DNA from: an uncultured Chlamydiae bacterium
GTDB lineage: Bacteria; Chlamydiota; Chlamydiia; Chlamydiales; JAJFMA01
DNA length: 64,000 bases
NCBI GenBank assembly: GCA_963713615.1
Contig: CAVQMM010000001.1
Coordinates: forward strand, 2,560,001 to 2,624,000
Reading direction: 5' to 3'
Every line of letters starts with the position of its first letter. The first letter of the stretch is position 1. Shown in pieces: positions 20,528-47,852 of the stretch. A program made the position numbers and the translations under genes. The notes under the pieces were generated by a model, which was given only the letters and a program-made list of their open reading frames with translations, did not search any database and was not told the DNA's origin.

Positions 20528-20533
20528 ACATTC

Positions 20534-20863: not shown

Positions 20864-20959
20864 AGGGTCCGATCATTTAAATGTAAGAAAGCAGGAGACT
20901 AAAAAAAGGCAAAAAGATCTATAAGGGGGATAAGGAAGACATCAACCCGAGGAGCGACT

Positions 20960-21574: not shown

Positions 21575-21613
21575 ACCTCTCTTTCTAAAGTAATTGCAAA
21601 ATAGGGAATTCTT

Positions 21614-21880: not shown

Positions 21881-21925
21881 CAGAAAAAGAACGGTTCTTG
21901 TGAAGCATTGGGGGGCGCTTTGGAA

Positions 21926-24658: not shown

Positions 24659-24662
24659 ATCG

Positions 24663-25472
24663 ATGAAGGTTAAAGATTACGCCTTCCTAGGCGCTTTAGG
24701 CCTATTGGCTATCTTTGTCTGGCTGCGAGACCGACTATGGATGTCCTCAGCAGAGGACACCCTGCCTATATTGGTAGCATTGCCGGTTTTCTTTTGGTTA
24801 GGAAGACCTTGGCATATTCTAGAAGCGCCTTTTCATTTATCCACTAAGGCAGTGGCTGCTAGCGTTATTTTGTTTCTTTTCGGCATCGTCGCTGAAAGCA
24901 CCCTTCTAATGGCTATAGGGTGGACCTTGCTTCTGTGGTCGTGGCTTAAGGTGCGTACACCTCCTGCAGACCAGAGTGACCTTAAAAAGTTATTGATACT
25001 TCCGTTGATGTCCTTCCCTTGGATTACGCTGGATATGCAAACCGTGGGATGGTACTTCAGACTTTCAGGAGCTTGGGTAACAGCACATTTTTTCTCTCTC
25101 TTAGGCTTCCCAGTCAAGTGGGAAGGTACCACTATCCTGATTGATAAGATGCCCATCTCCGTAGAAGCCGCCTGTGCAGGGCTCAATACTCTCCAGAGTA
25201 TGCTAATAGCAGGAACCGTGGTGGCCTTTGTGATCCTAGGACGCACAAATCGCTACTGGCCCAACCTATTAGTTCTAATTTTGATGGCATGGCTTGCCAA
25301 TACCTTCCGCATTGTGGTCATTAGCGCTGTTGCGTTGACATTTGGTCGAGATTTCGCTCTTGGAGCCTTCCACCAATGGGGCGGCTGGTTCATCTTGGTA
25401 TTAATGTTTGTAATGTGTTGGCTATTGTTTGAACTACAGGCTCCTAAAGTAGCACCTAAGCCGAAAACATGA
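24663..25472 (+). CDS. Exosortase/archaeosortase family protein
   Basis: About 8 TM segments; catalytic-triad motifs VEAACAGL (Cys), LANTFRI (Arg), FHQWGGW (His). Confidence 0.85.
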   Translation: MKVKDYAFLGALGLLAIFVWLRDRLWMSSAEDTLPILVALPVFFWLGRPWHILEAPFHLSTKAVAASVILFLFGIVAESTLLMAIGWTLLLWSWLKVRTPPADQSDLKKLLILPLMSFPWITLDMQTVGWYFRLSGAWVTAHFFSLLGFPVKWEGTTILIDKMPISVEAACAGLNTLQSMLIAGTVVAFVILGRTNRYWPNLLVLILMAWLANTFRIVVISAVALTFGRDFALGAFHQWGGWFILVLMFVMCWLLFELQAPKVAPKPKT

Positions 25473-25939
25473 TCAAAAAAGCAAGTTTACCAAAACCTAT
25501 TGAAATTGCGGTCCTAGGCTACTGCCTTTGGCAAGCTACCGATCTGGTACGCTCTTGGCTTACAGCTCCAGCGGAAAGATGGGCTTGGATCGCTTTTTTT
25601 ATCTGGTGCATTCCTGTCATTTGGTACCTAGCTATCACCATCCAAGAGCAGCAAATCAAACAATCAACGCCTATTCTTCTTGGTGCAGCGATTGTCGTTG
25701 CCCTCGTCGGTGGCTTAGGGTCTCTGAATATCTTGGGACACATCGGATTAGCTCTGGCGTTGGCGGGCATGCTTCCATTTCGCTGGGAAATCCTTGTCTG
25801 GTTAGCCACGGCGCTGTCTTGGTTGCCCAGTTTTGGGTGGATGATTAAAAGTCTTCCCTTTGCAATTATTCCCATCATCCAAATAGGGTTAGCCTTATTC
25901 GGAAGCGCCTTTTTGTTGTACTGTTGGCGGAGGTCCTAA
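25469..25939 (+). CDS. Small multi-TM protein (exosortase-associated)
   Basis: ATGA overlap with the exosortase; Trp-rich, about 5 hydrophobic segments. Confidence 0.7.
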   Translation: MIKKASLPKPIEIAVLGYCLWQATDLVRSWLTAPAERWAWIAFFIWCIPVIWYLAITIQEQQIKQSTPILLGAAIVVALVGGLGSLNILGHIGLALALAGMLPFRWEILVWLATALSWLPSFGWMIKSLPFAIIPIIQIGLALFGSAFLLYCWRRS

Positions 25940-26622
25940 TATGCAACAGACCGGTCGTACAATAGCACTATGGATAGGGCTAGCTGTGGCGGTAGTCCTG
26001 GGGCTTCTATGGCAATTCGCACCTTTAACAGACGCCAAGAGCAGGCTGCAGGCCCTTCCCTTGAATGGCCCTAGTTTTATTGGTCAAGATATCGCTCTTT
26101 CCGATTGGGAAAAAGGCTATTTTAAAAATGTCAATGTTCTCAAACGCGTCTACACCATCGGTAAGAAGACGTTGTTTGTCACAGCGTTAGATGGAACGCT
26201 AAATCGCCACGTGGTTCACGATCCCCTATATTGCTTCCGAGGCAGTGGCTATGAGGTCGCTAGCGAAAAAACTATCGATCTGCCAGATGGTGGCTCCGTC
26301 GCTTTCTTAAAGTTGATTAAGAACAATTCAGAACAAGATGCCATGTATTGGTTCACAAATGGCCAGACAACGTACGATAGCCCCTTACGCTATTGGTGGC
26401 AGGCAACTCTGCGACGCCTCACGCTAGGCATGTCTGGGAAAGAGCCCATTTTGATCGTCGTTCAGCCCATTGACGACCACCCTCTCGACTGGAAAGAGGT
26501 CGTGCACTACTTCCCTCAGCTTCTCACGCTATAAAAAGCTTCACAAACGCTCTAGGCTTATCTTTCAATGCTTTAAGATCTCACAATCGTGTTGAATCGT
26601 TTTCTTCGTTTTGTAAATGTCC
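25534..26622 (+). repeat. Left copy of ~1.09-kb direct repeat (partner 39724-40812)
   Basis: Base-by-base match at offset 14190; only four differences seen in the core (25849, 25876, 26099, 26439), more at the edges. Confidence 0.95.
25941..26534 (+). CDS. Exosortase-associated EpsI-like protein
   Basis: N-terminal TM, HDPLYCFRGSGY (H.P..C..G.G motif), YWF; downstream of the exosortase. Confidence 0.75.
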   Translation: MQQTGRTIALWIGLAVAVVLGLLWQFAPLTDAKSRLQALPLNGPSFIGQDIALSDWEKGYFKNVNVLKRVYTIGKKTLFVTALDGTLNRHVVHDPLYCFRGSGYEVASEKTIDLPDGGSVAFLKLIKNNSEQDAMYWFTNGQTTYDSPLRYWWQATLRRLTLGMSGKEPILIVVQPIDDHPLDWKEVVHYFPQLLTL

Positions 26623-26678
26623 ATAATTTCCATAAAGTCCATTTATACTGTGGCGAGAATGCACAACATGGACACTAT

Positions 26679-27004
26679 GAGGTAATTGCAAAATTATTTG
26701 AGCCCTTAAGGATCGATTCTTAGGAAAAAAGGTTACCCTCTTTTGCGAGAAGGCGACGCTATAAAGCTCAGATGGCATGCCACCATCTAGTCTGGAAAGA
26801 CAGGCTTTTCTCCCCTCCCAGGCCCGAAGGGTCGATATTGCAACAGGCCATGGCATCGCCATGGTATATGCCAAAACTGTTTTAGCAGCCTGTAGGGCTG
26901 CCATAAAGCGCATGCATAAATGGTGTGTGTAAGCCGACGCCTTATGGCATCCCTACGAGGCTGCTAAATCCATTTCTGACATATACCGTGGCGATGCATG
27001 GCCA
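26679..27004. mobile_element. Truncated family A MITE-like copy abutting the CRISPR array
   Basis: Starts GAGGTAATTGCAAAATT after ...ACAACATGGACACTAT; the second arm is degenerate and ends at the first CRISPR repeat. Confidence 0.8.
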
Positions 27005-27007
27005 AAT

Positions 27008-29085
27008 GTTTCAATCCACGCCCCTGCGTGAGGGGCGACGCCTTAAAGGCGAGCAAAAGGCGAACGCTATCATGTTTCAATCCACGCCCCTGCGTGAGGG
27101 GCGACGGCATGGTCAACTTGCGAGAAGACCAATCGTTAGTTTCAATCCACGCCCCTGCGTGAGGGGCGACCATGACTCCAGAGCAAATTATTAGTGAAGT
27201 GGCTGTTTCAATCCACGCCCCTGCGTGAGGGGCGACATAGCAGCCGAACAACTAGGTCGCAAATGCACCGGTTTCAATCCACGCCCCTGCGTGAGGGGCG
27301 ACGGTAGCACCTTGGACCTGTGCGTTTCTAAAGGCTGTTTCAATCCACGCCCCTGCGTGAGGGGCGACCAGCTAGTAACTGGCTCTGGACAGGGACAAAC
27401 ACGTTTCAATCCACGCCCCTGCGTGAGGGGCGACCTTGTGTGCTAAGAATCCCGAAGTTGGGTTGGGGGTTTCAATCCACGCCCCTGCGTGAGGGGCGAC
27501 TTTGTGTTAACCTACCGGCTTTGCGAATCCATAGTTTCAATCCACGCCCCTGCGTGAGGGGCGACTTTGAGCCGTTGGTAAATGCGTATACCTATCGTGG
27601 TTTCAATCCACGCCCCTGCGTGAGGGGCGACGTAACTAAGTAACAAGCAAGCAAGGAATAAGTAGTTTCAATCCACGCCCCTGCGTGAGGGGCGACAAAC
27701 GAGCACGGTGAAGCGTGCAATATTGGTCAACGTTTCAATCCACGCCCCTGCGTGAGGGGCGACCCAGCGTTTCGCGCAATTCATCGTCCATGTAATGTTT
27801 CAATCCACGCCCCTGCGTGAGGGGCGACGTGTGAAGCGAATTTGTTGCGCAAAGTGTCCACTTGTTTCAATCCACGCCCCTGCGTGAGGGGCGACGTAAA
27901 TACTGGTTGACCACATTACCCTTCCTATGTTTCAATCCACGCCCCTGCGTGAGGGGCGACGTGACGGCTTCTGGGGACCTGTCCACAGCAGCGAGTTTCA
28001 ATCCACGCCCCTGCGTGAGGGGCGACAACGATGTTAGCCTATACATCAGTGCAATAACAGGGCGAGTTTCAATCCACGCCCCTGCGTGAGGGGCGACGCG
28101 GCGTGCTTTGCCGCTTGCCTGGATATCGTGGTTTCAATCCACGCCCCTGCGTGAGGGGCGACGTCCCGATGCTTATTCCCGCTTGGTTGTTACTGGTTTC
28201 AATCCACGCCCCTGCGTGAGGGGCGACACACCGCAGCCACCGCAGCAACTAGCTGCATAGTTTCAATCCACGCCCCTGCGTGAGGGGCGACGCCTTTAGC
28301 CTTGGCCTTTTTGCCAGCGTTTCAAGTGTTTCAATCCACGCCCCTGCGTGAGGGGCGACAAACCAGATAGAGTTTGCCTTTAGCGGGAATGATGTTTCAA
28401 TCCACGCCCCTGCGTGAGGGGCGACCCGCCGCCCCCGCCGCCCCAATTGTGACTGCTTGAGTTTCAATCCACGCCCCTGCGTGAGGGGCGACATGACGGA
28501 AGAGTAGCCGTAAGGCCATTATTGATGTTTCAATCCACGCCCCTGCGTGAGGGGCGACCTACCATTTGTTTTTGCAGGTATGGCCCCATTCCTGTTTCAA
28601 TCCACGCCCCTGCGTGAGGGGCGACGATGTTAGCCTATACATCAGTGCAATAACAGGGTTTCAATCCACGCCCCTGCGTGAGGGGCGACGGAAAAGCCGT
28701 CGGTTCATCTTCGATCCACGAAGTTTCAATCCACGCCCCTGCGTGAGGGGCGACCGTAGCCGCTTGGCCCGCGGGAGCCACTGTCGGGTTTCAATCCACG
28801 CCCCTGCGTGAGGGGCGACTGGGAGCCGATTTTGATCTGTTCCAAACCCTATGGTTTCAATCCACGCCCCTGCGTGAGGGGCGACGCTGCTTTGACGCTC
28901 ACCTTACCAAATGGACCGGTGTTTCAATCCACGCCCCTGCGTGAGGGGCGACCTATGCAGTTGAACTTATGGACGACGACATACGGGTTTCAATCCACGC
29001 CCCTGCGTGAGGGGCGACTCAACATTGAATTCAAAGCGCTCAGTGTCCACGTGGTTTCAATCCACGCCCCTGCGTGAGGGGCGAC
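27008..29085 (-). CRISPR. Type I-C CRISPR array, 32 identical 32-bp repeats (GTCGCCCCTCACGCAGGGGCGTGGATTGAAAC), 31 spacers of 32-39 nt
   Basis: Repeats counted by eye; canonical I-C repeat ending ATTGAAAC on the minus strand; adjacent to cas2. Confidence 0.98.
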
Positions 29086-29300
29086 CGCGAACAGTATAAC
29101 ATACTGAAGTTTAGCTCGGTAGAATTAATCCAGCGCGGATCTGACTTGCCGAAACAACTTAAAGATATTTATTACACCTATGAAAACGGAAATAGTTCAT
29201 TCACAAGGAATAGTGATTTGCGCGAATCTCTCGCGTTTGCTATGGGCAATGTGGGTCCGCGCTCCAGATTCTATACTCTAAAAAAATGGATGCCGCAAGA
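29086..29300 (-). promoter_or_regulatory. CRISPR leader
   Basis: AT-rich non-coding stretch between cas2 and the first transcribed repeat. Confidence 0.75.
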
Positions 29301-29591
29301 TTAGACGATTAATACACCCTCAGGGTCGTAGGAAGGCTTAGCACCTGTATGCTCAACTCTGCGATGCCAATTGTCCCCAAGAAAATAAAACCTCAGACTA
29401 TCCGTTTCTGGGTCTATGGCTTTATATAAGCTATTGGAAACTTTCACCCAAAGTGTAGAATCGATCGAACATTCAAAAACCGAATGTTGCACTCTTTGGC
29501 CATAGTTCACGCAGATTCGAGCTACGCGCCGCAACCTACGCCGACCCGCAGCAGTTTCTGTATTAACATCATAGGTAATCAGGATAAGCAT
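29301..29591 (-). CDS. cas2: CRISPR-associated endoribonuclease Cas2
   Basis: LITYDV...RRLRRVA...YGQRVQHSVFEC...DSLRFY. Confidence 0.96.
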   Translation of the reverse strand: MLILITYDVNTETAAGRRRLRRVARICVNYGQRVQHSVFECSIDSTLWVKVSNSLYKAIDPETDSLRFYFLGDNWHRRVEHTGAKPSYDPEGVLIV

Positions 29592-29605
29592 ATCATTCCC
29601 TAGTA

Positions 29606-30637
29606 TTACTTCCACAGAAATGGAGGATATGCCTCCAAGTCACCTCTAATATAACGAGCCAATAACATAGCCTGAACATGAGGTATTAGGCCGATTGCAA
29701 TTTTCTCGCCTAAAAACGGATGCTCGACTTCTTCTTTCTTTCGGTTTTGATAGGCGACTAAGACTTCCTTTCGTGTTTCATCATTCATGATTACAGCACC
29801 ACTTTCGGACATCTTAAAGCCCCTTCCTTTGATTTGCTGACGATTGACTAATGTTAACGCTACACGATCTGCGAAATGGGGGCGTAGCTCTTCCATTAAA
29901 TCCAAGGCTAGACTGGGCCTTCCTGGACGATCGCGATGTAAAAAACCAACAGCAGGATCCAAACCAACAGTTTCTAATGCAGATGAAACATCATGAGCAA
30001 GCAATGTATAGTAAAAGGAAAGTAGCGCATTCATATTGTCTAGAGGTGGACGTCGCGTCCTTTGTCGAAAGTAAAAGTCCTGTTTCTGCGCTAATATGAG
30101 ATGATCGAAAGCCGAAAAATAGAGCTGCGCAGCTTCTCCCTCCACACCACGCCAAGAATCAACCGTCTGTTCTTCCTTCATTTGCTTTAAGCGATACCCC
30201 ATTGAATCTGCTACCTTCGTAAGTACTTTTGCGGCATCGCTATCATTATGCTCACGCGCAGCTCTCATTAACACCGTACGGCAATTTGCCACCTTACCAT
30301 AAACGATAAGTCTAGCAATTTTAGCACTCGTGACACCACAGTCTGCAAATCTATACTGTTGACGTCGAAGTAGGACATTGCCTGAAACAGGACCTTGCAC
30401 CTTCGCTATGAACCGTCCATACTGACTTAGAAAAGATAACGATACTTTGCTCTCAACACATAACTGCATTAACGGCGGACTACACATAACCTGGCCAATG
30501 CAGACAATTCCCCCTAGAAGATGTATTGGAAATCGACCCTTTGTTTCATCCTTCACACGAATAAGAACTGTTTCCCCGTCTCTACAAAGATATGAACCCT
30601 CTGTTGTCACGAATAGTGTGTTCAATAATTTTTTCAT
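29606..30637 (-). CDS. cas1: Type I-C Cas1
   Basis: MKKLLNTLFVTT, GVEGEAA..YF, RRPPLD..NALLS, GFLH.DRPGR.SLALDLMEE, YPPFLWK. Confidence 0.97.
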   Translation of the reverse strand: MKKLLNTLFVTTEGSYLCRDGETVLIRVKDETKGRFPIHLLGGIVCIGQVMCSPPLMQLCVESKVSLSFLSQYGRFIAKVQGPVSGNVLLRRQQYRFADCGVTSAKIARLIVYGKVANCRTVLMRAAREHNDSDAAKVLTKVADSMGYRLKQMKEEQTVDSWRGVEGEAAQLYFSAFDHLILAQKQDFYFRQRTRRPPLDNMNALLSFYYTLLAHDVSSALETVGLDPAVGFLHRDRPGRPSLALDLMEELRPHFADRVALTLVNRQQIKGRGFKMSESGAVIMNDETRKEVLVAYQNRKKEEVEHPFLGEKIAIGLIPHVQAMLLARYIRGDLEAYPPFLWK

Positions 30638-31341
30638 GGTGCCCTCCAATCGCCTTCTGCCGCTTTCTCTAAGACGTCCATGTACCTTCCCATAGAGGCT
30701 TCCGCTTGGGTGAATCGAGGCATACAGAGCTCAATGAGCGAACAGCGTTTGCATGCTGATTTCCAAACTGCCGGTGGCGTTTTTCGGTTTCGATCAAGTT
30801 CATGTAATCGCAACGCAGCAGCCTCAGTAGTTGCCCTCAAGCAAGCGTTGAGTTCGATTTCTAAGCGTTTACGCGGTTCTCCATAAAATATAGCTCCTAC
30901 TGACAGGCTTGTCTGAAGCATTTCTTCAAGACAGAGAGCCTGAGCACATACCTGTACGCGATCGCAGTCGCTAACCTTGTCTCGGCCTCTTTTATACTCA
31001 ACCGGGACTGGCCGCCAGAGTCCTTCTAGATCCGCCAGTCTTACAGCACCTGCTGCCATGCAGATGTTAGGATCTGAGCCATCAATTCGAATAAACTCCA
31101 CTACATCGGCTTGACCGGTAAGTCCTAAACGCAGACTTCTCAGCCGTAAACCACGGGTGATACGAAGACCATCACGAACTTCCGTAGATGGATCATGTGC
31201 CTTTGCATGTAGCAAATTGCCTTCTGCAGTTAGCTTATTGTCAAGCCACTGCTGTTCCAAATGGATTAAGGCCCATTGACGTTCACAAAACATCAGGTGC
31301 TGCAAAGCGGAGATCGGTAAAAGTTCATCCTCCTGAAACAT
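30634..31341 (-). CDS. cas4: Cas4
   Basis: ISALQH..FCERQWALIH, G.ADVVE, PVEYKRG, C..CSL...C. Confidence 0.95.
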   Translation of the reverse strand: MFQEDELLPISALQHLMFCERQWALIHLEQQWLDNKLTAEGNLLHAKAHDPSTEVRDGLRITRGLRLRSLRLGLTGQADVVEFIRIDGSDPNICMAAGAVRLADLEGLWRPVPVEYKRGRDKVSDCDRVQVCAQALCLEEMLQTSLSVGAIFYGEPRKRLEIELNACLRATTEAAALRLHELDRNRKTPPAVWKSACKRCSLIELCMPRFTQAEASMGRYMDVLEKAAEGDWRAP

Positions 31342-31364
31342 AGCTATATGCCTTGTATGGATAT

Positions 31365-31404
31365 TGACCAAAACGAGATCGACCATTGGATCTCGTTTTG
31401 GTCA
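31365..31404. terminator. Perfect 16-bp stem-loop between cas7 and cas4
   Basis: TGACCAAAACGAGATC-N8-GATCTCGTTTTGGTCA; no clear U-tract. Confidence 0.5.
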
Positions 31405-31430
31405 CGTTGACGTTGATGTCTGCGGATTCT

Positions 31431-32315
31431 CTACATACGTAAAAGTTCTACACCTAAAGGAAGTTCGGTATCGTTAATTTGAATATTATAGTCCTCAAAT
31501 TGACGTACGGACTGAACCTCATTTTTTTGCGCAATGGATATTCTATCGAATAATTTGTGAGCAGGGGCATTACCCAGCTGACTGCCATGTTTGAACACAT
31601 ATAATCCCCTGGTCGACATATGCCCTCTAGCAGCGGAATGATCATGTTCAAACATCTGCAAAAGTGCTTCCCAAAACAAATCAAGATCTTCTTCAGAAAA
31701 GCCTGTTTGTTTTGCTAAAGCTGCAGAAATAAAGCCGTGTGCCCTGTACAGGCCATAGGAAACAGTATGTTTCCTTCCCATAGTACGGTTGTCCCCGTCC
31801 TGTTCTTTGGCCTCTTTTTCTGTGGTAACTGCCATTCTCGTAATGGAATGTTCGATGGGAAATATTGGACTAATAGACCTAGCAAAAGTCAACTGCACAG
31901 GTCCACGAACCTGACCACAGCGTTTATCTTTGTCTCCTGTGCTCATGACAGCGCCAAAAGTTCGGATGTCATAGAAATTTTGACACATCCAATCTCTCGC
32001 TTTGTCCACCTTATTTCTCGGCCCTTCATCTGCTTCTGAGAAAAGCCCTTCGTCCAATGCCTTATGGGCTCGTTCATGTTGATGATTTAAGATGGCTTTT
32101 TCCTTAACGTAAATCTCATAAGGAGGTTTGGGGTTACCCTCCATTTTTAGCCCTATATAATTTCTCACCTTTCGCTTAAGACATACATCTGTTATCAAAC
32201 CACAACCGGTTTCGGAATCTACTCGAGGAGTATTACCTCCATCAGGATCACCATTCGGATTGCCATCTTTAACATCGAATAAAAGTACAAAATCATAACG
32301 ATTGTTTATAGACAT
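31431..32315 (-). CDS. cas7: Type I-C Cas7 (Csd2)
   Basis: [47 protein letters not shown]. Confidence 0.97.
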
Positions 32316-32319
32316 GAAT

Positions 32320-32688
32320 CTATTCTCCTTTATCTTGTATCTTAGCACTTGAGAAAAACTGTTGGCGCTGATGGTAATATCCCAGGGCAAAGCGAGCCTG
32401 TTCTTCTAATCCTAGTTGTGTCGGAAAATCGGTAAGGCCTCCCAGAACACTCCCTAATTGCCTTTCAAATGATATCGCCAAACCCTTATCTAGCTTTGGA
32501 AGATGATGATTTTTCAGATTTAGCAATGTTGGAAAAACGATAGTGGGTCTTGTTGCGGCAGTGCCATAATACCGCTGACGAATGGTTGCATTAATTCCTG
32601 GCAATGCCTTTTCCTGAATACGTTCCAGAACAGCAAACAGTCGCCCTAGTCGATAGCCTGGGTCGTTATTTGTTTCGTCTAGTGACAC
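32320..32688 (-). CDS. cas11: Internally translated small subunit Cas11c
   Basis: In-frame AAGGAG-N6-GTG giving (M)[15 protein letters not shown]..., 122 aa, matching the known hidden Cas11 of type I-C. Confidence 0.7.
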
Positions 32689-34059
32689 TTGAATCTCCTT
32701 ATGTTGAGTTCCTTGAGAACGAACCTGTCGGTTCAAATAGGCTTTTAGCATAGCTGCACGAGGGTACGAGATAGTATGATCATCCCCTCGCTCAGCGCGA
32801 ATACGCGCAAGCACACTCAATAACATTATTCGCGGATAGGCCCCCCCGTCCAATATTGCTTTGATGAGAGCACTCGTTATTGATGGGTGCAGATTGTCTA
32901 GTTTTCCTTGCAACGCGGTTGCTCGAAGCAATGTCATTAAGGAAAGATGATCTGGTTCACGCGTGCCATGAACTATGAAGAGATCATCAAAATGCCTTCT
33001 GATATTGCTAGTGAGCTCCTCTACGGGTAACACCCGCCAAAAACGAATAGCTAACCTGGAAGCATTTGGCGAAAGGCCCAAGATGTAAAAAAGGGTTTTG
33101 TCTTTATTGTTAGCAAGAACTCCTGCATATGGAGCAGCATAAATACTTCTAACAGCAGACGCATTGCGATCAGGATTATCCTTTTCAGGCTCTGCGAATA
33201 AGTCAGCAAAACTTTCCTCCAAATCATGCTTTTGGCCAGCCCAAAATACTACTGAAGTATCTCCATTAATAATGAGCCGTTGACGACTTTCTTTGTCGAG
33301 CAAATGATTTAACGCAGTCGTGTAGGAAAATGCGGCTTCTTTTCCTACGGGTGCATTATGTCCCTGATTCTTTCTAAAAGATCTGAAGGACTCTTGCTGA
33401 AAACTAACGATGTTGGTCCCGCTCGGCTGTCCACCTCTCACTCCTTTGATCGATGGATGAACCCTTTCAATAGGCCCTAGGTTACCTGTCACTAAACATA
33501 GCCCTAGGGGTTCATCCTCTTTATCATCTATTTTTTTTAGAGCATTCCTTACGCATGGAGCTTCACAAACCGGTCTGTTGTAGCCTTGAACGAAAAATGA
33601 AGTATTGGCTTTTTTTAGAGTTAAATCATCCCATAATGAATGAGTTTCTAATTCCGAAAGATTACCCTTCTCCAAAAAAGAAAGAACAGCTGCTATCTCA
33701 TCATCATTGCCTATAAACTCTGCCAGACGTTGAATTCCCTTTATAAAAGCCGTTTGCTTCTTCTTTCCATCGTCTGGCTTGTCAGAAGCAATGCCCAACA
33801 CCCACTGCGCATTATCCCACAGAAGGTTTGGCAGTAATTGGGTGGAAGTACGCTTTACTCCTTTGGGAACCAGAAAACGCTTTGGAATAGACTTCTGTCC
33901 TTTCTTCTCACGAGTATCATGAATGTCAACGAAGTAACCATCTCTACTCAGAACTATAAGAAAAGGAATTTCCTTCCATTCCAAACCTGGAGGGGCAATG
34001 CCACTATCCGGATCAGCAGCCTTGCGATTATAGTAGTCGTAGAGTGCCTGCAAAATCAT
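32320..34059 (-). CDS. cas8c: Type I-C Cas8c (Csd1)
   Basis: [45 protein letters not shown]. Confidence 0.96.
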
Positions 34060-34721
34060 CCTCTTACCTCTGGGCTGTTGGGTGATGGAACCAACAATAC
34101 TCCCTTGTCTAACGTAGCTCTAAAAAACAAGGGTCGAATATTGTCTGGATCCGAGTAGTTTAGATCATAGAGCATCCATCCAAGATCACGTGACTCGTCA
34201 ATAGGTTCAGGAAGGTCATTGCGATGGTCAAGCAACTCAAAAGAAGCCGCGAATTCACGGCAACCGAGATAAGGTTGATTGAAGCATTGACCATTGTTAG
34301 CCCTACGACGAAACATTTCCGAGAACTTTTGTGTGGTGTTTTCAGGCTTAGCTTGTGAATCAATGTCAAACCTTCCATGAATCAGATAGGCGACATCCCT
34401 CAGTAGCAGGGAGGCTCGCTGTTGTCTGTCTTCTTCAATGTATTGTCCTAGAGACCCTACCCCTCGAGTCATGGCAGTACGTACAGTTCCTCTGGGAATA
34501 ACACTCCCGACTTCATTGCGAAGCACTGACAACCACTTAATGGGATTTAAAATCTCAATCTTGGTAATTCGCCATCGAATTGCGGGTTTCCACAAAACTG
34601 CCTCAAAGATACTCCTGGCCGCAGAAGGGGTCATTATGTCATATGACACCCGTTCTGCCTTCATCTCCGGTCGGGTGAAGCAGGCAAGATCTCCCCATAC
34701 CTTTAAACAAAATTCATTCAC
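34056..34721 (-). CDS. cas5: Type I-C Cas5
   Basis: GDLACFTRPEMKAERVSYD..TPSAAR, QPYLGCREF, DLGWMLYD. Confidence 0.97.
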   Translation of the reverse strand: MNEFCLKVWGDLACFTRPEMKAERVSYDIMTPSAARSIFEAVLWKPAIRWRITKIEILNPIKWLSVLRNEVGSVIPRGTVRTAMTRGVGSLGQYIEEDRQQRASLLLRDVAYLIHGRFDIDSQAKPENTTQKFSEMFRRRANNGQCFNQPYLGCREFAASFELLDHRNDLPEPIDESRDLGWMLYDLNYSDPDNIRPLFFRATLDKGVLLVPSPNSPEVRG

Positions 34722-34732
34722 TGATTTCCCTC

Positions 34733-36994
34733 CTAACAGATAAAAACTTCTGGCTCTTGGTAATGTTCGTCACCTCCCAAAAAGCCCAACTCGTGGTGAT
34801 AAAGCCCCTCAACCTGTGCAAAGTACCCAGGACTCGCAGGTCGAAGTTCTTGAATCTTCTTCTCAGATAAAAGTTGTAGAAACAAACCACGCGGAATATT
34901 TACGGAATATCGTTGTAGTCGGCGCAACACATCTCTGCTTGGACCACCGTCGAAAAGGGCCTTAATCCGCTCCTGAGCATCACCATAATGCACAAAAACC
35001 GAAGCCTGGCTGGAGTCGTCGATGAGTTTGAATTTCTCAGCAGCAGTTCGAAATTGAAACTCTAGATCTCTCGACTCAAGGTCATCCAAGATTCTCTCGG
35101 AATCAAAGTCATTTATGGATGAATAAAACTGTTGAAAGTAGCTGCTTATAGACTCTGGATGAAGAGGGTCTGCCTTGTTCGTTTGGAGCATTTGCCGGGC
35201 TATGGTTTCTCCCTTTCTAAGGATCCCCTGTGAAGCTGGCTTGGGAGGAATAAAAACTACGACCTTTCCCAAATCAAGGCGACCCTCACGATTGCATCGA
35301 CCTGCAGCCTGAGTGATGGAATCAATGCCTGCCAAGGCTCGGTATACAACTGGAAAGTCGAGATCAACGCCTGCTTCCACTAGTTGGGTGCTAATCACCC
35401 TAATAGGCTCACCAGCCTTTAATTTTTGCTTGATTTCACTAATGACATCGGAACGATGCTGCCCACACATGAGCGCTGAAAGATGGTACGTGCCTACTGG
35501 CATGAGTCTGAATAGTTCTCTACAATCATCTCGGCGATTAACAATGCACAATACCGAAGGATAAATTTGCAGCTCCTGTGCAATGTCCTCCCATGAACGT
35601 TTTTCGGATAGGGAGTCGGGTACCTGCACCCGAACTCTTTTCAGCTTGTCATACAGCAAATGCGGTTCATCAATAATTTCCCGTACATTCCTGAGTCCTT
35701 GGAACCGTCTCCCATGTTGAATACGCTCCACAAATTCTGGCTGGGTGGCGGTACAGAGAACCGCTGTCATGTTGTAGTAATCACTCAGAGCCTGTAGCAT
35801 TTTATTGATGGGTCCCAAAAATTTTGTTTCCAGGAGTTGGACTTCATCCAGAATCACTACGCTATTAACGATGTTATGTAACTTACGAGTGCGACTCGAA
35901 CGTGCTGCAAACAGGGATTCAAAAAATTGAACATTCGTAGTTACTATGATAGGAGCATCCCAGTTTTCACTAGCAAGACGACTCTGCGTTGTTTCCTTTT
36001 CTGAATCGAAATTGCTATGATGTTCTACAACGGCATCTCCAAAAATAGATCTAAACTCGTTAGCTGTCTGTTCAATGATGCTTGTGTAAGGAATCACATA
36101 AATAATGCGCCGCTTGCCATGCATAAGGGCATGGTTTAAGGCAAAGGCCATACTAGATAGTGTTTTACCACCTCCTGTCGGTACGGACAGAGAAAATATT
36201 CCCGACTCCCACTCCGCAGCCTGCTTGCAACGTTTTAAGACTGCTGCTCGAAGCTGATTCAATGGGTTTGACTCAACTTTTTGCAGCTTATTGGCCATAA
36301 AGGTTGAGAATTTCACCTCAAGCTCACTTAGAGATGGATACCCCCCACGCAGAGCATTCCTTTCAGCGTTCATGAAAGATTCAGTATCCAGAAAGTCCGC
36401 ATCAACTAAGCAGGAGAACAACATACGAATCCACAGAGCATGCGCATCGCACCCTGGTGGCTTCGAAACAGGAACAGGTAAGTCGTCGGACAATCGAACT
36501 TGATCTAAGCAACAAACCCTATCATACAAAGATGTGTTGGAGATTCGCGTAGAGAGTGAACTTGCACCCGCTTTTTCTGAATTCCAGTCCGGTAAACCTG
36601 CGTGGTGCCCTGCTATTAAATAGGCAATAATCTGACCACGTTTTTTGAGCTTCTCTATAGAGTGAATTGCTCCTGCTGTAGAATGATCCACGCGCCCCTT
36701 TTGTTGTTCAAGGTGCGCCTCGGAATCATACCCACTCTTACTCTTGATGTAATTTTGAAATTCAGATGAATATTTGCCCAAGTCATGCCATAGGCCAGCT
36801 AAAAAGGCCCAATCACCGCAACCAAATTCATCGGCAAAGTTCTTGGCGAGGTGTGCTACACTGCGTAGGTGATCGCCTAATTCATGCGTTTGCCAAGCTC
36901 CGTTTTTTCCTAAACAAACATGGGCCAAGTAACATTGGGATTTTTTGTTATCATCTAGCGCTCTCCTATCCATCCTTATCTCCTCATCATCCAA
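34733..36994 (-). CDS. cas3: Cas3 HD nuclease-helicase
   Basis: HDLGK, HHAGL, LVDADFLDT, VPTGGGKT, DEVQ, STQLVEAGVD, QAAGRCNREG; start uncertain. Confidence 0.96.
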   Translation of the reverse strand: MDDEEIRMDRRALDDNKKSQCYLAHVCLGKNGAWQTHELGDHLRSVAHLAKNFADEFGCGDWAFLAGLWHDLGKYSSEFQNYIKSKSGYDSEAHLEQQKGRVDHSTAGAIHSIEKLKKRGQIIAYLIAGHHAGLPDWNSEKAGASSLSTRISNTSLYDRVCCLDQVRLSDDLPVPVSKPPGCDAHALWIRMLFSCLVDADFLDTESFMNAERNALRGGYPSLSELEVKFSTFMANKLQKVESNPLNQLRAAVLKRCKQAAEWESGIFSLSVPTGGGKTLSSMAFALNHALMHGKRRIIYVIPYTSIIEQTANEFRSIFGDAVVEHHSNFDSEKETTQSRLASENWDAPIIVTTNVQFFESLFAARSSRTRKLHNIVNSVVILDEVQLLETKFLGPINKMLQALSDYYNMTAVLCTATQPEFVERIQHGRRFQGLRNVREIIDEPHLLYDKLKRVRVQVPDSLSEKRSWEDIAQELQIYPSVLCIVNRRDDCRELFRLMPVGTYHLSALMCGQHRSDVISEIKQKLKAGEPIRVISTQLVEAGVDLDFPVVYRALAGIDSITQAAGRCNREGRLDLGKVVVFIPPKPASQGILRKGETIARQMLQTNKADPLHPESISSYFQQFYSSINDFDSERILDDLESRDLEFQFRTAAEKFKLIDDSSQASVFVHYGDAQERIKALFDGGPSRDVLRRLQRYSVNIPRGLFLQLLSEKKIQELRPASPGYFAQVEGLYHHELGFLGGDEHYQEPEVFIC

Positions 36995-37186
36995 CGATTT
37001 GGATCAAACGTCCATGGAATTTACCAACATTACCCTTATTTATCAAGACTAAAGATAATGAATTAATTATTCTACATACAGTCTATAGTTAATCTTATAT
37101 TTTTTAGTTATGCTTGTTGAGCTGTTGTGTCAGAGACTATCAACAAACGCAAAATACTCTCACGTCTGACCAAACTTGAGATTATG

Positions 37187-37346
37187 GGCCTTGTTCACCT
37201 TTACGGTCAGAATTTCGGTCGGACGAAAAAGGTCGGATGTCGTGGTTTGTGACGAGGGCATAGCGCCAGCTATGTCCGAGGAGCAAAACGCGACAGACGA
37301 TCCTTTTGCAGTCGACCGAAAACTGACCGCAAAGGTGAATAAGGCC
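37187..37346. repeat. Palindromic intergenic element (family D)
   Basis: GGCCTTGTTCACCTTTACGGTCAG...CTGACCGCAAAGGTGAATAAGGCC long imperfect inverted repeat. Confidence 0.7.
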
Positions 37347-37419
37347 AGATTATGCATCGAAGAGATAAGATAGAGAACGGGCAACAGATACCCAGGCTAG
37401 CCTAAGGTAAACAGAACTT

Positions 37420-39183
37420 TTATACATTCGTTGCAGCGGACTGCTCAGGGTTAAAATAGATTTTCCAATGAATTTGATTCACCAAGTCTTGTTCGTCATA
37501 AGTCAATGGGGATTTGACCACACCAGTCACATGGTAAGAACGAAGGTGATTCTCTATTAAGGATAGATTTAATTTGTCACACTTTCTCAAATAGCGAGCA
37601 ATGTCTACAGCGCGTTCAACAATCGCCTTTCTGTAATTATCCTCTATTTTTTTTAAATAATCATTACTTTTAACATAACCCAAATCCAGTTGATTTATTT
37701 TTAAATCAAATTCACTATTGTTTTTAATATCGATCAATCCGACAATTGCCCTCAAATAAATACACTTATCTAAGGAGGTCTCGAATCCGTAAGCCAAAGT
37801 GGGATGGATAAGGATTTCTCTTGTCTCCCCTAATTGCATCCCTTTAACTCCTAAAGCCAGTCCAGGAATTGTATTTTTTAAATTAATAACAACGTTAGCC
37901 TCTGTGGCTAGACAATGACCCATCGGTGAAAAGATGCTATAACTTAGTGAAACATGGCATCCTTTGCATTTGACGTCTCCATTTCCACTTTTAATCATTC
38001 GATAGCTAAGTTTCGCAGGAATAACTGTACGGTAATTTGAATCTAGCTTCAATCTTTCAAAAAGTTCGTCTGCCTCTTGCAGGTTAGCCTTGGCTTCCAA
38101 AAATGTTCTTCTATATGCAGGAAATCGAGCCAGTCGGTCTCCACTACCTTGGCTTTCTGTCGCTTTTAATCCTTCAAAAAAGTAAGGCAAATAGTCGGAA
38201 TCATATGTCTGTATTGCTTCCCAAACAGCCTTTGCCATTACCTCATTGATATCGTGTTGTGTGATGAAAGAATCGGAGTTATTTTTTCGAAACGTATGGT
38301 TTTTTTTTCCAAACTTTTGAAGGATTTCCTCTAATGAGAGGGATGACAAAAGGGATTTATTAATTAAATCTTGAGTGTTTTCCAGTTCAGAGATAATTTT
38401 TCGAGAATTGTCTGAACTCTTTACCCAGCCAAAGACAAATTGAGGGGTTTGTGTGATCAATTTGGTCGAAGATGTCGTCGTTTGACTCTGAAGCGTATTT
38501 ATTTCATCGCCAATGGACTTAAAGCTAAAGCTAGGAGAAAATGGCAAAAACTCTTCGTTGTAGTCCTGTCGTATTAACGAGGCTGACTGGAAAGGAGGAA
38601 CATCTTCATCCATAGCCTCTTGAATATTTTCCTTACGAGCAATGTACAATGAATTCTGTTCACCATAACCCAGAAGCTTTCCGATTAGAACTTTGTCTCC
38701 CTTAAGCAGGGAATAAAACGTTTGCCGATTAGATAGTAAGGCATCTAAAAGAGCTTGAGAGGTCACTGCAGGACCCAAGACGTATTGAAATAGTGGTAGG
38801 CTTTCGTTGACAACTTGGTGAAAAAGTGGAATGTTGATCACAAGAACATGGATATAGCCCGGTATGCGGGGATCTTCCCTATTGCAAATGTGAATGATCA
38901 CGTCGGAAGGTGAATCTACTAGATCCTTCCATATACCAGCCCCAGCTCTCAAAGCGGTTGATTGCCTGTGAGTGGTGGAATTAACAGGTAGAGGGTCTTT
39001 GGAGAAGTATCCTTCAACACATACAGGTTTTTTGTTTAAAACTGCATAACCCGACTCGGAATGTTCTAGAAGGGTTTCAACAAAGACCTTTAAAACAGCT
39101 TGCTGTGTTAAAGAAAGATCATATGTTTCCCCGATACAAATTGTCCTTGCCAATATGAAAAATATCATTAAGAAACGAAACAT
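37420..39183 (-). CDS. Secreted protein with a C-terminal FKBP-type PPIase-like domain
   Basis: Signal peptide; TIPGLALGVKGMQLGETREILIHPTLAYG; visibly AT-rich. Confidence 0.7.
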   Translation of the reverse strand: MFRFLMIFFILARTICIGETYDLSLTQQAVLKVFVETLLEHSESGYAVLNKKPVCVEGYFSKDPLPVNSTTHRQSTALRAGAGIWKDLVDSPSDVIIHICNREDPRIPGYIHVLVINIPLFHQVVNESLPLFQYVLGPAVTSQALLDALLSNRQTFYSLLKGDKVLIGKLLGYGEQNSLYIARKENIQEAMDEDVPPFQSASLIRQDYNEEFLPFSPSFSFKSIGDEINTLQSQTTTSSTKLITQTPQFVFGWVKSSDNSRKIISELENTQDLINKSLLSSLSLEEILQKFGKKNHTFRKNNSDSFITQHDINEVMAKAVWEAIQTYDSDYLPYFFEGLKATESQGSGDRLARFPAYRRTFLEAKANLQEADELFERLKLDSNYRTVIPAKLSYRMIKSGNGDVKCKGCHVSLSYSIFSPMGHCLATEANVVINLKNTIPGLALGVKGMQLGETREILIHPTLAYGFETSLDKCIYLRAIVGLIDIKNNSEFDLKINQLDLGYVKSNDYLKKIEDNYRKAIVERAVDIARYLRKCDKLNLSLIENHLRSYHVTGVVKSPLTYDEQDLVNQIHWKIYFNPEQSAATNV

Positions 39184-39270
39184 AGTTTAAAAAATCAAAG
39201 TCCATTTAGCATTACATTCATTTTTTGTTTAAAACGGCACAAAACTTCGCCGTAACCTAAGACAAAGCCT

Positions 39271-39639
39271 TTAAGGCCAAGCTACACAATTACAATGATA
39301 AGGACAGTCCCTCACAACGCAACCCCAGCAGCGTGTGCACCACACTCGATGCCCCATGCGACATCGATCGGTAATTGAGTCTATCATTAAATCTTCAATG
39401 AGACAATATATCCCATTTCTATCCCAGGCGATTTTTTCCGCAAAAACTCGCGCTCCATCAACAAAAAAATAGAGACCTTCATCGGTGATCCATAGTTGAG
39501 TGGGATCAAGATAGATCTTTTTATCAATAATTTTATATTCCTCTGCAAATCGAGCAAGAGGAATTTTGTCGATAGTCGGTGTACCAAAAATAGGGCAGAA
39601 CAGCACGTTAAGCAGGCAGAGGAGAATATTTTTTTTCAC
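39271..39639 (-). CDS. Small secreted protein with a Cys/His-rich C-terminus
   Basis: Signal peptide; CRMGH...CTRCWGC....CPYHCNC. Confidence 0.65.
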   Translation of the reverse strand: MKKNILLCLLNVLFCPIFGTPTIDKIPLARFAEEYKIIDKKIYLDPTQLWITDEGLYFFVDGARVFAEKIAWDRNGIYCLIEDLMIDSITDRCRMGHRVWCTRCWGCVVRDCPYHCNCVAWP

Positions 39640-39723
39640 AACAAACCCTCGCTAGTCCAATAAAAACATATATATATATAAAACACTTTCTTTAAGAGCA
39701 CGCAAAAAGTCGGATTTGGTCAC

Positions 39724-40129
39724 AGTTACCGATCCGGTATGCTCTTGGCTTACGGCTCCAGCGGAAAGATGGGCTTGGATCGCTTTTTTTATCTGGTGCA
39801 TTCCTGTCATTTGGTACCTAGCTATCACCATCCAAGAGCAGCAAATCAAACAATCAACGCCTATTCTTCTTGGTGCAGCGATTGTCGTTGCCCTCGTCGG
39901 TGGCTTAGGGTCTCTGAATATCTTGGGACACATCGGATTAGCTCTGGCGTTGGCGGGCATGCTTCCATTTCGCTGGGAAATCCTTGTCTGGTTAGCCACG
40001 GCGCTGTCTTGGTTGCCCAGTTTTGGGTGGATGATTAAGAGTCTTCCCTTTGCAATTATTCCCATAATCCAAATAGGGTTAGCCTTATTCGGAAGCGCCT
40101 TTTTGTTGTACTGTTGGCGGAGGTCCTAA
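39724..40129 (+). pseudogene. 5'-truncated duplicate of the 25469-25939 membrane protein gene
   Basis: Identical protein from SWLTAPAERW onward; lacks the first ~22 codons. Confidence 0.8.
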
Positions 40130-40130
40130 T

Positions 40131-40724
40131 ATGCAACAGACCGGTCGTACAATAGCACTATGGATAGGGCTAGCTGTGGCGGTAGTCCTGGGGCTTCTAT
40201 GGCAATTCGCACCTTTAACAGACGCCAAGAGCAGGCTGCAGGCCCTTCCCTTGAATGGCCCTAGTTTTATTGGTCAAGATATCGCTCTCTCCGATTGGGA
40301 AAAAGGCTATTTTAAAAATGTCAATGTTCTCAAACGCGTCTACACCATCGGTAAGAAGACGTTGTTTGTCACAGCGTTAGATGGAACGCTAAATCGCCAC
40401 GTGGTTCACGATCCCCTATATTGCTTCCGAGGCAGTGGCTATGAGGTCGCTAGCGAAAAAACTATCGATCTGCCAGATGGTGGCTCCGTCGCTTTCTTAA
40501 AGTTGATTAAGAACAATTCAGAACAAGATGCCATGTATTGGTTCACAAATGGCCAGACAACGTACGATAGCCCCTTACGCTATTGGTGGCAGGCAACTCT
40601 GCGACGCCTCACGCTAGGCATGTCTGGGGAAGAGCCCATTTTGATCGTCGTTCAGCCCATTGACGACCACCCTCTCGACTGGAAAGAGGTCGTGCACTAC
40701 TTCCCTCAGCTTCTCACGCTATAA
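40131..40724 (+). CDS. Second copy of the EpsI-like protein
   Basis: 197 aa, identical to 25941-26534 except one K->E change (GMSGEEP). Confidence 0.8.
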   Translation: MQQTGRTIALWIGLAVAVVLGLLWQFAPLTDAKSRLQALPLNGPSFIGQDIALSDWEKGYFKNVNVLKRVYTIGKKTLFVTALDGTLNRHVVHDPLYCFRGSGYEVASEKTIDLPDGGSVAFLKLIKNNSEQDAMYWFTNGQTTYDSPLRYWWQATLRRLTLGMSGEEPILIVVQPIDDHPLDWKEVVHYFPQLLTL

Positions 40725-40816
40725 AAAGCTTCACAAACGCTCTAGGCCTATTTTTCAATGCTTAAGGACCTCACAATCGTGTTGAATCGTTTTCTTTGTT
40801 TTGTAAATGTCCCTAG

Positions 40817-43362
40817 GAGGTAATTGCAAAATTATTTGAGCCTTTAAGGATAGATTCTTAGGAAAAAAGGTTACCTTTTTTTGTGAGAAGGCGATTCTGG
40901 AAAGCTCAAATGGCATGGCACTATCTAGTCTGGAAAGACAGGCTTTTCTCCCCTCCCAGGCCCGAAGGGTCGATATTGCAACAGGCCATGGCATCGCCAT
41001 GGTATATGCCAAAACGGTTTTAGCAGCCTGTAGGGCTGCCATAAAACGTCAGTATTCACACGCTATTTATACAAGCGCCTTATGGCAGCCCTACAGGCTG
41101 CGAAATCCCTTCCTGGCATATACCATGGCGATGCCATGGCCTGTTGCAATATCGACCCTTCGGGCCTGCGAAGGGAATGGCTCTCTCTTCACCGGCATCC
41201 GATTTTCAGGAAATTGACTTCGGAAAATCGGACTTCTGCAATTACCTCCTATGGACAACATGAACACTATGAGGTAATTGCAAAATTATTTGAGCCCTTA
41301 AGGATCGATTCTTAGGAAAAAAAGGTTACCTTTTTTTTGCGAGAAGGCGGTTCTGGAGAGCTCAGATGGCATGCCACTATCTCGTCTGGAAAGACAGGCT
41401 TTTCTCCCCTCCCAGGCCCGAAGGGTCGATATTGCAACAGGCCATGGCATCGCCATGGTATATGCCAAAACGGTTTTAGCAGCCTGTAGGGCTGCCATAA
41501 AACGTCAGTATTCACACGCTATTTATACAAGCGCCTTATGGCAGCCCTACAGGCTGCGAAATCCCTTCCTGGCATATACCATGGCGATGCCATGGCCTGT
41601 TGCAATATCGACCCTTCGGGCCTGGGAAGGGAATGGCTCTCTCTTCACCGGCATCCGATTTTCAGGAAATTGACTTCGGAAAATCGGACTTCTGCAATTA
41701 CCTCCTATGGACAACATCAACACTATGAGGTAATTGCAAAATTATTTGAGCCCTTAAGGATCGATTCTTAGGAAAAAAAGGTTACCTTTTTTTGTGAGAA
41801 GGCGACGCTATAAAGCTCAGATGGCATGCCACCATCTAGTCTGGAAAGACAGGCTTTTCTCCCCTCCCAGGCCCGAAGGGTCGATATTGCAACAGGCCAT
41901 GGCATCGCCATGGTATATGCCAAAACGGTTTTAGCAGCCTGTAGGGCTGCCATAAAACGTCAGTATTCACACGCTATTTATACAAGCGCCTTATGGCAGC
42001 CCTACAGGCTGCGAAATCCCTTCCTGGCATATACCATGGCGATGCCATGGCCTGTTGCAATATCGACCCTTCGGGCCTGGGAAGGGAATGGCTCTCTCTT
42101 CACCGGCATCCGATTTTCAGGAAATTGACTTCGGAAAATCGGACTTCTGCAATTACCTCCTATGGACAACATGGACACTATGAGGTAATTGCAAAATTAT
42201 TTGAGCCCTTAAGGATCGATTCTTAGGAAAAAAAGGTTACCTTTTTTTGTGAGAAGGCGACGCTATAAAGCTCAGATGGCATGCCACCATCTAGTCTGGA
42301 AAGACAGGCTTTTCTCCCCTCCCAGGCCCGAAGGGTCGATATTGCAACAGGCCATGGCATCGCCATGGTATATGCCAAAACGGTTTTAGCAGCCTGTAGG
42401 GCTGCCATAAAACGTCAGTATTCACACGCTATTTATACAAGCGCCTTATGGCAGCCCTACAGGCTGCGAAATCCCTTCCGGCCTGGGAAGGGAATGGCTC
42501 TCTCTTCACCGGCATCCGATTTTCAGGAAATTGACTTCGGAAAATCGGACTTCTGCAATTACCTCCTATGGACAACATGGACACTATGAGGTAATTGCAA
42601 AATTATTTGAGCCCTTAAGGATCGATTCTTAGGAAAAAAAGGTTACCCTCTTTTGTGAGAAGGCGACGCTATAAAGCTCAGATGGCATGCCACCATCTAG
42701 TCTGGAAAGACAGGCTTTTCTCCCCTCCCAGGCCCGAAGGGTCGATATTGCAACAGGCCATGGCATCGCCATGGTATATGCCAAAACGGTTTTAGCAGCC
42801 TGTAGGGCTGCCATAAAACGTCAGTATTCACACGCTATTTATACAAGCGCCTTATGGCAGCCCTACAGGCTGCGAAATCCCTTCCTGGCATATACCATGG
42901 CGATGCCATGGCCTGTTGCAATATCGACCCTTCGGGCCTGGGAAGGGAATGGCTCTCTCTTCACCGGCATCCGATTTTCAGGAAATTGACTTCGGAAAAT
43001 CGGACTTCTGCAATTACCTCCTATGGACAACATGGACACTATGAGGTAATTGCAAAATTATTTGAGCCCTTAAGGATCGATTCTTAGGAAAAAAGGTTAC
43101 CCTCTTTTGCGAGAAGGCGACGCTATAAAGCTCAGATGGCATGCCACCATCTAGTCTGGAAAGACAGGCTTTTCTCCCCTCCCAGGCCCGAAGGGTCGAT
43201 ATTGCAACAAGCCATGGCATCGCCATGGTATATGCCAAGACGGTTTTAGCAGCCTGTAGGGCTGCCATAAAACGTCAGTATTCACACGCTATTTATACAA
43301 GCGCCTTATGGCAGCCCTACAGGCTGCGAAACCCCTTCCTGGCATATACCATGGCGATGCCA
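40817..43362. mobile_element. Head-to-tail tandem array of six family A MITE-like units
   Basis: Units start at 40817, 41271, 41727, 42182 (internal ~49-bp deletion), 42588 and 43043 (truncated); joined by 22-bp linkers CTATGGACAACAT(GG/GA/CA)ACACTAT. Confidence 0.9.
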
Positions 43363-43454
43363 CATAGGCCTCAACCTAACAAGCCCTTTGGGCTTATGTT
43401 TCAATGCTTTAAGGCTTTCTAGGCAACTCAAAAGGTTGGCTGGCGCAATTTCCT

Positions 43455-43482
43455 ATGTGGCGCAGTCATTCCATGACTGCGA
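43455..43482. repeat. Short REP-like hairpin (family E)
   Basis: ATGTGGCGCAGTCATTCCATGACTGCGA, identical at 52617-52644. Confidence 0.7.
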
Positions 43483-43546
43483 ACAATCCGTTGCAATTGA
43501 GTTACTTGGAAGCCCTCGGTGGTGGAGAAGATCGCAAACCCTCAGA

Positions 43547-46957: not shown

Positions 46958-46959
46958 CT

Positions 46960-47829: not shown

Positions 47830-47852
47830 TATCTCACCGCTTTGGCTAATTC

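Follow-up and report, generated by a model that had tools for sequence, protein, structure and literature searches.

The DNA considered here, referred to as the window, is a stretch of 64,000 bp from an uncultured Chlamydiae bacterium (genome G000; positions 2,560,001-2,624,000 of contig C1 in a 3.97-Mb assembly of three contigs, C1, C2 and C3), and its central part carries a CRISPR-Cas system of type I-C (CRISPR, short palindromic repeats that are clustered and regularly interspaced) enclosed between two direct copies of part of an exosortase operon. Placement of the genome among the environmental chlamydiae is supported by a CT441-type Tsp, two TyrP-like transporters, the gltX-recJ neighbourhood and the database names of homologs. 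Six genomes of the same chlamydial family (G001-G006, with G003 being a congener) were used for comparison, cas genes were scored against NCBIfam cut-offs, and other open reading frames (ORFs) were compared with Pfam and NCBIfam. Positions refer to the window unless a contig or locus is named, and the features are collected in Table 1.

The duplicated operon segment and its cargo

The segment at 25534-26622 recurs in direct orientation at 39724-40812, 1,089 bp aligned without gaps at an offset of 14,190 bp, and 13,101 bp separate the two copies, which bears out the description in the first-pass annotation of a 14.19-kb unit bounded by 1.09-kb direct repeats. The shared DNA is longer when gaps are allowed: 25534-27015 aligns with 39724-41150 at 92.6%, giving a repeat of ~1,480 bp that continues past a 52-bp indel to about 27003/41140, the added 3' part being a palindromic repeat found genome-wide, and two 1-bp gaps lengthen the 5' match by nine bases, to 25527/39715. 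Each copy contains codons 22-156 of a membrane protein gene, the whole EpsI-like gene (epsI) and 88 bp of downstream DNA, and the part at 25534-26534 belongs to the low-copy DNA, occurring at only two places in the genome. As the same annotation had it, the left-hand operon is whole, with the exosortase, the 156-aa membrane protein and epsI genes all intact, and the right copy picks up partway through the membrane gene, at its codon 22. Neither a promoter nor a terminator consensus was found at the right junction, and there is no Rfam family in 24000-44500. The exosortase operon as a whole (14044-26534), which also includes a response regulator, a sugar transferase and two TPR genes, is conserved across the chlamydial family, and EpsI homologs also occur in Verrucomicrobia-labelled records.

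The ungapped copies differ at 14 positions, and these are unevenly distributed: four lie in the first 31 bp (25536, 25545, 25550 and 25564), four in the 993-bp core (25849, 25876, 26099 and 26439) and six in the last 65 bp (26558, 26562, 26574, 26576, 26579 and 26607). The count of four core differences with more strongly diverged edges therefore holds (4/993 compared with 4/31 and 6/65), with P values of 4e-5 and 7e-6 for edge against core in windows chosen after looking, and perfect blocks of 284, 222 and 339 bp lie inside the repeat. All four changes at the start of the right copy are transitions, and they include Ala to Val and Leu to Pro replacements; because these alter residues that are constant in six of six relatives, the right-copy stub is the derived and decayed side. 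In the core, where divergence is 0.4%, three differences are synonymous and one falls at a variable residue. An old edge beside a young core implies that recombination renewed the core, either through copy-to-copy conversion or by crossing over, at entry, with a fresh allele, and the pattern of decay in the right copy, aged at its start and not in its core, points to recombination after or during arrival. The idea that the stub only by chance resembles the sequence upstream of the 122-aa gene was rejected, since the two corresponding upstream regions of G003 give no convincing match and the four changes are all transitions.

The cargo between the copies consists, in order, of a CRISPR array, the I-C cas operon, a 160-bp palindromic element, an FKBP-domain gene and a 122-aa gene. 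The I-C system is complete: all seven cas genes pass the NCBIfam cut-offs, no cas6 match is present and the array is adjacent. The array has spacers of 32-39 nt and presumably has its leader end towards cas2, an orientation taken from the repeat 3' end. Spacers 16 (39 nt, 28027-28065) and 25 (32 nt, 28626-28657) share 32 nt and differ at their ends, which suggests two captures from one invader. The I-C spacers have no target in 50,697 phage records, spacer 25 (the sole one of the 31 tried) has none in viral contigs, and in a check for self-targeting the best spacer match outside the array in the genome itself is only 19 nt. Two viral contigs (L082 1-93; L083 5001-5098) bear an identical I-C repeat, as a mini-array of two repeats or where a contig ends, and neither has a cassette gene or a spacer match. 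Profile scans of cassette ORFs of at least 80 aa found no integrase, transposase or phage families, in agreement with the reported lack of integrase and transposase genes, but the 160-bp element inside the cassette has ~130 genomic copies; no tRNA gene is present in the 64-kb window.

The FKBP-domain gene and the 122-aa gene form a pair that sits twice in G003 (L058 8757-10912; L059 9168-11352), both sites being other than that in G000. The 587-aa protein matches the two G003 copies at 65% and 64%, these copies match each other at 69%, and upstream of the 122-aa gene an AT-rich likeness to G003 extends up to about 39712 (by eye). Since the pair is chlamydial, the block was probably assembled in a chlamydial background and not acquired whole from a distant donor. 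Several chlamydial families contain distant full-length relatives of the pair, and G000 itself has a distant paralog at C1 1,081,122-1,083,496 with a 116-aa gene before it (likeness by eye); no named family extends past the FKBP domain, and the pair seems to have been relocated often.

The 433-bp palindromic unit next to the cassette arms is a long hairpin, which may be of REP/REPIN type. The first 221 bp of the left-hand unit match right units 3-6 at 217-219/221 and right unit 1 at 208/221, and its last 103 bp carry a loop of another subfamily, with 83/103 matching the right-hand units; a 'loop inversion' in the left palindrome was rejected for this reason. Copies of the unit adjoin one of six Y1_Tnp loci (L063), a candidate RAYT-type gene. 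There are at least three long palindromic repeat families genome-wide, with 171, 130 and 85 loci (copies in the window include 7850-8084), and a Y1 transposase-family gene (L066) lies among copies of a third family; the placement of L063 and L066 is like that in REP/RAYT systems. High-copy repeats make up 10.7% of the chromosome. A 10-kb tandem array with a period of 243 bp occupies 17,419-28,098 of the 52-kb contig C3.

Table 1. Features of the cassette and its flanks (window positions)
Feature	Position	Strand	Basis and remarks
Exosortase (EpsH-type), 269 aa, unduplicated	24663..25472	+	PF09721, E 1.5e-25; single copy in genome
156-aa membrane protein gene, intact left copy	25469..25939	+	ORF; no Pfam/NCBIfam family; orthologs 49-65% in six relatives
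Left copy of duplicated target	25534..26622	+	Gapped match to 25527 and about 27003
EpsI-like gene, 197 aa, left copy	25941..26534	+	PF11984; TIGR02914 weak, under cut-off
One unit of dispersed 433-bp palindromic repeat, truncated by CRISPR array	26680..27003	+	171 genomic loci, each 150 bp or longer
CRISPR array, 32 identical 32-bp repeats, 31 spacers	27008..29085	-	
Presumed leader, single copy in genome	29086..29300	-	Position
Type I-C cas operon (cas3, cas5c, cas8c, cas7, cas4, cas1, cas2), all open	29301..36994	-	NCBIfam above cut-offs; 44.6% GC
160-bp palindromic high-copy element, like a miniature inverted-repeat transposable element	37186..37346	.	Identical to many genomic copies; 130 loci of at least 140 bp
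587-aa protein, FKBP-type domain, chlamydial family	37420..39183	-	PF00254; 38.5% GC
122-aa gene, partner of FKBP gene	39271..39639	-	61% to both G003 copies, same order; 41.5% GC
Right copy of duplicated target, headless, first 31 bp decayed	39724..40812	+	Alignment; 151-nt read piece over junction
EpsI-like gene, right copy, open, K167E only	40131..40724	+	ORF and copy comparison
Six tandem 433-bp palindromic units (fourth internally deleted, sixth cut short)	40818..43362	+	
Ancestral right-flank block (phosphodiesterase-like, nucleotidyltransferase-like, two glycosyltransferases)	44643..48983	-	Directly after epsI in relatives

Read support and the ancestral state of the site

Four of 16 listed public metagenome runs were matched to 24500-44400 at a depth of 2-4 on unique DNA; since these runs may include the source sample, they support the sequence and do not provide independent biology. 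At this depth they gave no sign of the mis-assembly that the first-pass annotation had named as the result that would overturn it. The cas genes, the FKBP gene and each copy of the repeat are matched without difference by pieces 151-290 nt long, and runs X2 and X5 each carry the left and the right alleles. One 151-nt piece of run X5 (39607-39757) bridges the right junction without difference, with 34 letters on the repeat side that include the four stub changes. Among the matches listed, no piece spans a whole copy or the junction between array and repeat. Mis-assembly is unlikely. Two metagenome joints that resemble excision (26932 to 41075 and 26932 to 42847, skipping 14,142 and 15,914 bp) were rejected as empty sites: their depth is 5.5-44 compared with 2-4 for unique DNA, four other letters lie between, and the joint form is that of a dispersed repeat subfamily with 67 genome copies, 36 of them with exactly the 2+6 differences of the piece from run X3. 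Contigs C2 and C3 were likewise rejected as an excised circle, as they have only repeats in common with the cassette.

The gene block found beyond the right copy in G000 comes about 0.4-0.8 kb or less after epsI in G001, G003 and G004; in G006 epsI adjoins a later gene of this block, in G005 no window gene lies downstream, and in G002 the contig ends at epsI. All six relatives have one membrane gene and one epsI each in the fetched region, and the three with an empty site are related to G000 at the genus or family level only (about 56-63% DNA identity). Cas8c was found in two of 61 genomes searched and in none of the six of the same family, with relatives in 30 loci of other phyla reaching up to 48%, and the I-C Cas1 of G000 has matches at E<=1e-20 in five of 401 genomes of the phylum, the best other match being 67%. 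Because the relatives are single-copy and lack the insert, and because Cas8c and Cas1 are this rare, the cassette was gained in the G000 lineage and is not ancestral here. An ancestral CRISPR system at this position, the other outcome that had been set against the earlier interpretation, is thus not what the synteny of G001, G003 and G004 indicates.

Other features of the region include a 317-aa gene without a family match to the right of the tandem repeats (43547-44500). It was not found in the six relatives, and the site has therefore received more than one insertion. A possible older scar at this site is seen in G003, where epsI and the intact phosphodiesterase-like gene are separated by a partial copy of the latter with 40% identity (L014 13650-14045), and further right in the window a 1030-aa repeat protein (49310-52402), with a XopAD/skwp match under the cut-off and a weak C-terminal RAP/DUF559 match, resembles a secreted effector.

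Parallel structures and the route of entry

Self-comparison of C1 yielded 54 low-copy direct repeat pairs 2-80 kb apart, of which 22 in one repeat-protein cluster (2.36-2.44 Mb) were dropped before examination and 32 were examined, including that of the cassette. Two of the 31 others show a clear layout of intact gene, cargo and headless copy. The K+ antiporter pair (C1 1,737,158-1,750,162, L076) has a 982-bp repeat at 96%, with 33 of 40 differences synonymous, and encloses an 11-kb Rhs block with palindromic repeats, a 1720-aa Rhs-type gene and three similar ~300-aa genes. The DAHP synthase pair (C1 1,083,623-1,090,951, L077) has a 622-bp repeat at 96%, with 21 of 25 differences synonymous, and encloses a P450 gene region with class Ia ribonucleotide reductase genes, upstream of which the sequence resembles a cobalamin riboswitch; the headless copy starts at a piece of the same palindromic repeat family. 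In both pairs the headless copy starts beside a repeat. Decay of a dead copy is expected to give about 30% synonymous differences, and the synonymous excess in both pairs therefore suggests that the headless copies were recently working alleles elsewhere, which would fit DNA entry from related strains. Relatives give only scattered single matches to the antiporter and DAHP synthase loci. A further pair (C1 2,919,266/2,933,953; 74/97 synonymous) was not counted, as it appears by eye to be a duplicated integrase-type gene, and a 151-aa pair was discounted as an uninformative whole-gene duplicate.

Single-crossover integration is the likeliest route by which the cassette arrived, a view that we hold with moderate confidence. 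In an earlier host the block would have been placed behind epsI, with the joint at the array's old end falling inside a palindromic repeat; the present end of the array, within a palindromic unit whose loop is foreign, is likely the scar of this first step. A fragment stretching from the membrane gene's codon 22 as far as a point shortly upstream of the 122-aa gene would then have been circularised or end-joined by illegitimate recombination, and one crossover in the shared DNA would have filled the empty site, leaving an unbroken operon to the left and the headless copy to the right. The copies may since have exchanged sequence, or the block may have left and re-entered repeatedly, keeping the core alike while the edges aged, and the reverse crossover would excise 14,190 bp scarlessly or double the block. 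Such a route needs a prior molecule in which the block already followed epsI, so the circle would explain the spread of the block and not its first placement. The host has recA and a ComEC-family gene. A ComEC homolog is described as important for DNA uptake in C. trachomatis (PMC6686042), and linear molecules homologous at one end were mostly circularised in E. coli and entered by a single crossover, with duplications of 109-950 bp (PMC3240628).

The first-pass annotation had proposed Campbell-type entry or RecA-dependent excision and amplification, and part of this stands. With recA in the host, long near-identical repeats, and crossovers at three test positions that leave both genes open and remove 14,190 bp, the unit is predicted to be RecA-excisable. 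Several observations weigh against the single-crossover route. A circle, an amplified form and a same-species empty site were all looked for and not found in metagenome pieces at depth 2-4, assembly contigs and relatives; a second genome of the same species is not in the protein collection, in which the eight clusters consulted hold G000 proteins only, and a metagenome scan for same-species relatives returned one distant locus only, with the nearest EpsI at 71%. The core's own three synonymous differences of four (P about 0.075) are too few to reveal a donor allele. The changes in the stub are of a damaging kind, so that the stub was probably dead before any recent entry, and conversion in place fits equally well. 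The contrast between edge and core draws its P values from windows picked after looking, and the 3' edge is the less informative of the two because it is repeat-family DNA that turns over on its own; likewise, with repeats covering so much of the chromosome, finding a junction within a repeat says little about cause. The clear parallel layout is limited to two of the 31 other pairs, and single-crossover entry cannot be told from local duplication with gene conversion.

That alternative, in which the block inserted at the palindromic repeat after epsI within one lineage, a template switch during replication, or a tandem duplication cut back by deletion between repeats, added the second copy and conversion followed, is possible and in our estimate less probable than entry by a crossover. 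Palindromic units stand at the 3' end of both copies, six of them in tandem on the right, the left unit being closer to right units 3-6 than to unit 1 indicates that the repeats exchange or rearrange locally, and the decayed stub with its clean core agrees with conversion; repeat-mediated duplication is documented for pneumococcus (PMC3784515). It requires two or three rare steps at one site, however, and it does not predict the synonymous excess of the two parallel structures, though these need not have a common origin with the cassette. An artefact in which haplotypes with and without the cassette were written in series is very improbable: a contamination estimate of 2.1% by marker genes, together with the lack of a listed piece over a whole copy or the array/repeat junction, leaves it some room, but a new mid-gene junction marks the start of the right copy and is bridged by the 151-nt piece with its four stub changes, both alleles are present in runs X2 and X5, and a haplotype chimera would not yield a headless, decayed copy. 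The layout is also that well established for integrative islands, in which the target is whole on one side with a 3' duplicate on the other, and, by eye, integrase-type genes and insertion-sequence (IS) elements are present elsewhere in the chromosome, so that the locus might be the relic of an integrase-driven island or of a mobile element targeting the 3' part of a gene and since deprived of its recombinase. We regard this as improbable, as the cassette ORFs of at least 80 aa include no recombinase gene or remnant, there is no tRNA target, and the duplication, unlike short attachment repeats, takes in one and a half genes together with intergenic sequence (1.1-1.5 kb in all), which is well above the size of usual attachment sites. 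No related locus with the same ends was seen among 33 other I-C loci inspected, most of which are truncated by contig ends.

Relation to known rearrangements and meaning

Insertion with long target duplication was reportedly treated by Nobusato et al. in 2000, and work on close long repeats in competent bacteria by Rocha et al. in 1999 is said to be relevant. For restriction-modification genes, Furuta, Abe and Kobayashi (2010) define the class by an insert of <20 kb, a repeat of >30 bp, the absence of mobility genes and an empty site in a relative, and report amplification through such repeats, with no evidence of release and the mechanism left unsettled (PMC2853133). The cassette has a direct repeat of 1,089 bp, an insert of 13,101 bp, no mobility genes and an empty site in G001, G003 and G004, and its coding 1 kb is two-copy, in line with their rule on high-copy sequences, with the caveats that the 160-bp element lies inside and that the 3' extension is a high-copy repeat. 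Its cargo of cas, FKBP-domain and 122-aa genes differs from restriction-modification genes, and it is therefore filed as a variant of this rearrangement. It resembles members of the class in carrying defence genes in less than 20 kb, with no integrase or transposase, between long imperfect direct target repeats and with a single-copy site in relatives. It departs from them in that its repeat exceeds the maximum of 423 bp in their Table 3, although their screen extended just 1 kb to either side (PMC2853133), that one cassette end lies in a dispersed palindromic repeat, and that the empty site is known at the genus level only.

The locus also resembles the single crossover of circularised DNA in a laboratory E. 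coli system, which has one homologous anchor and one illegitimate joint, is RecA-dependent and leaves a partial target duplication, but in that system, as in competent species, true homology-facilitated events usually cause a loss of target DNA, and at the cassette the site is duplicated (PMC3240628). CRISPR-Cas systems have been described in environmental chlamydiae, type I-E in Protochlamydia (PMC5010888) and type I-C in two metagenome-assembled genomes (PMC8242063), and the cassette is like these in being a horizontally acquired, patchily distributed class 1 system between conserved genes, with spacers that have no database matches; no flanking target duplication is described in the consulted portions of those two accounts (PMC5010888, PMC8242063), and G000 differs in having both I-C and I-F systems. 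Literature listings and the starts of abstracts, together with passages of PMC4760077, contained no CRISPR-Cas cassette with a kilobase target duplication. The locus is a long, well-defined variant of a known rearrangement and shows no new immune or mobility mechanism.

A complete type I-F CRISPR-Cas system with 48 identical 28-bp repeats lies among IS-like genes 440 kb away (C1 3,029,170-3,040,475, L081); a related I-F operon is present in the congener G003 (C35; Cas1 66%), and the I-F spacers have no match in their own genome at E<=0.01. The statement in the first-pass annotation that immunity is gainable or losable is thus too strong, since loss of the I-C block would take 31 of 78 spacers and not CRISPR immunity itself.

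The cassette is a clear and long example of the gain of CRISPR-Cas without a mobile element, in an obligate intracellular lineage in which such systems are rare (Cas1 in 5/401), and recombination, between the repeats or through them, is recorded in its fresh core and aged edges. Tentatively, and with considerable doubt, it might be an enzyme-free mobile unit equipped with homology arms of its own, popping out and in among strains through RecA alone, with the core renewed each round while the edges age, along a routine route for the uptake of kin DNA to which all three cases would belong. If true, the cassette would lend itself to a test of the release and reinfection that have been proposed, but not demonstrated, for defence genes flanked by long target duplications. 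The parallel cases suggest that the habit is general to this genome and not specific to CRISPR.

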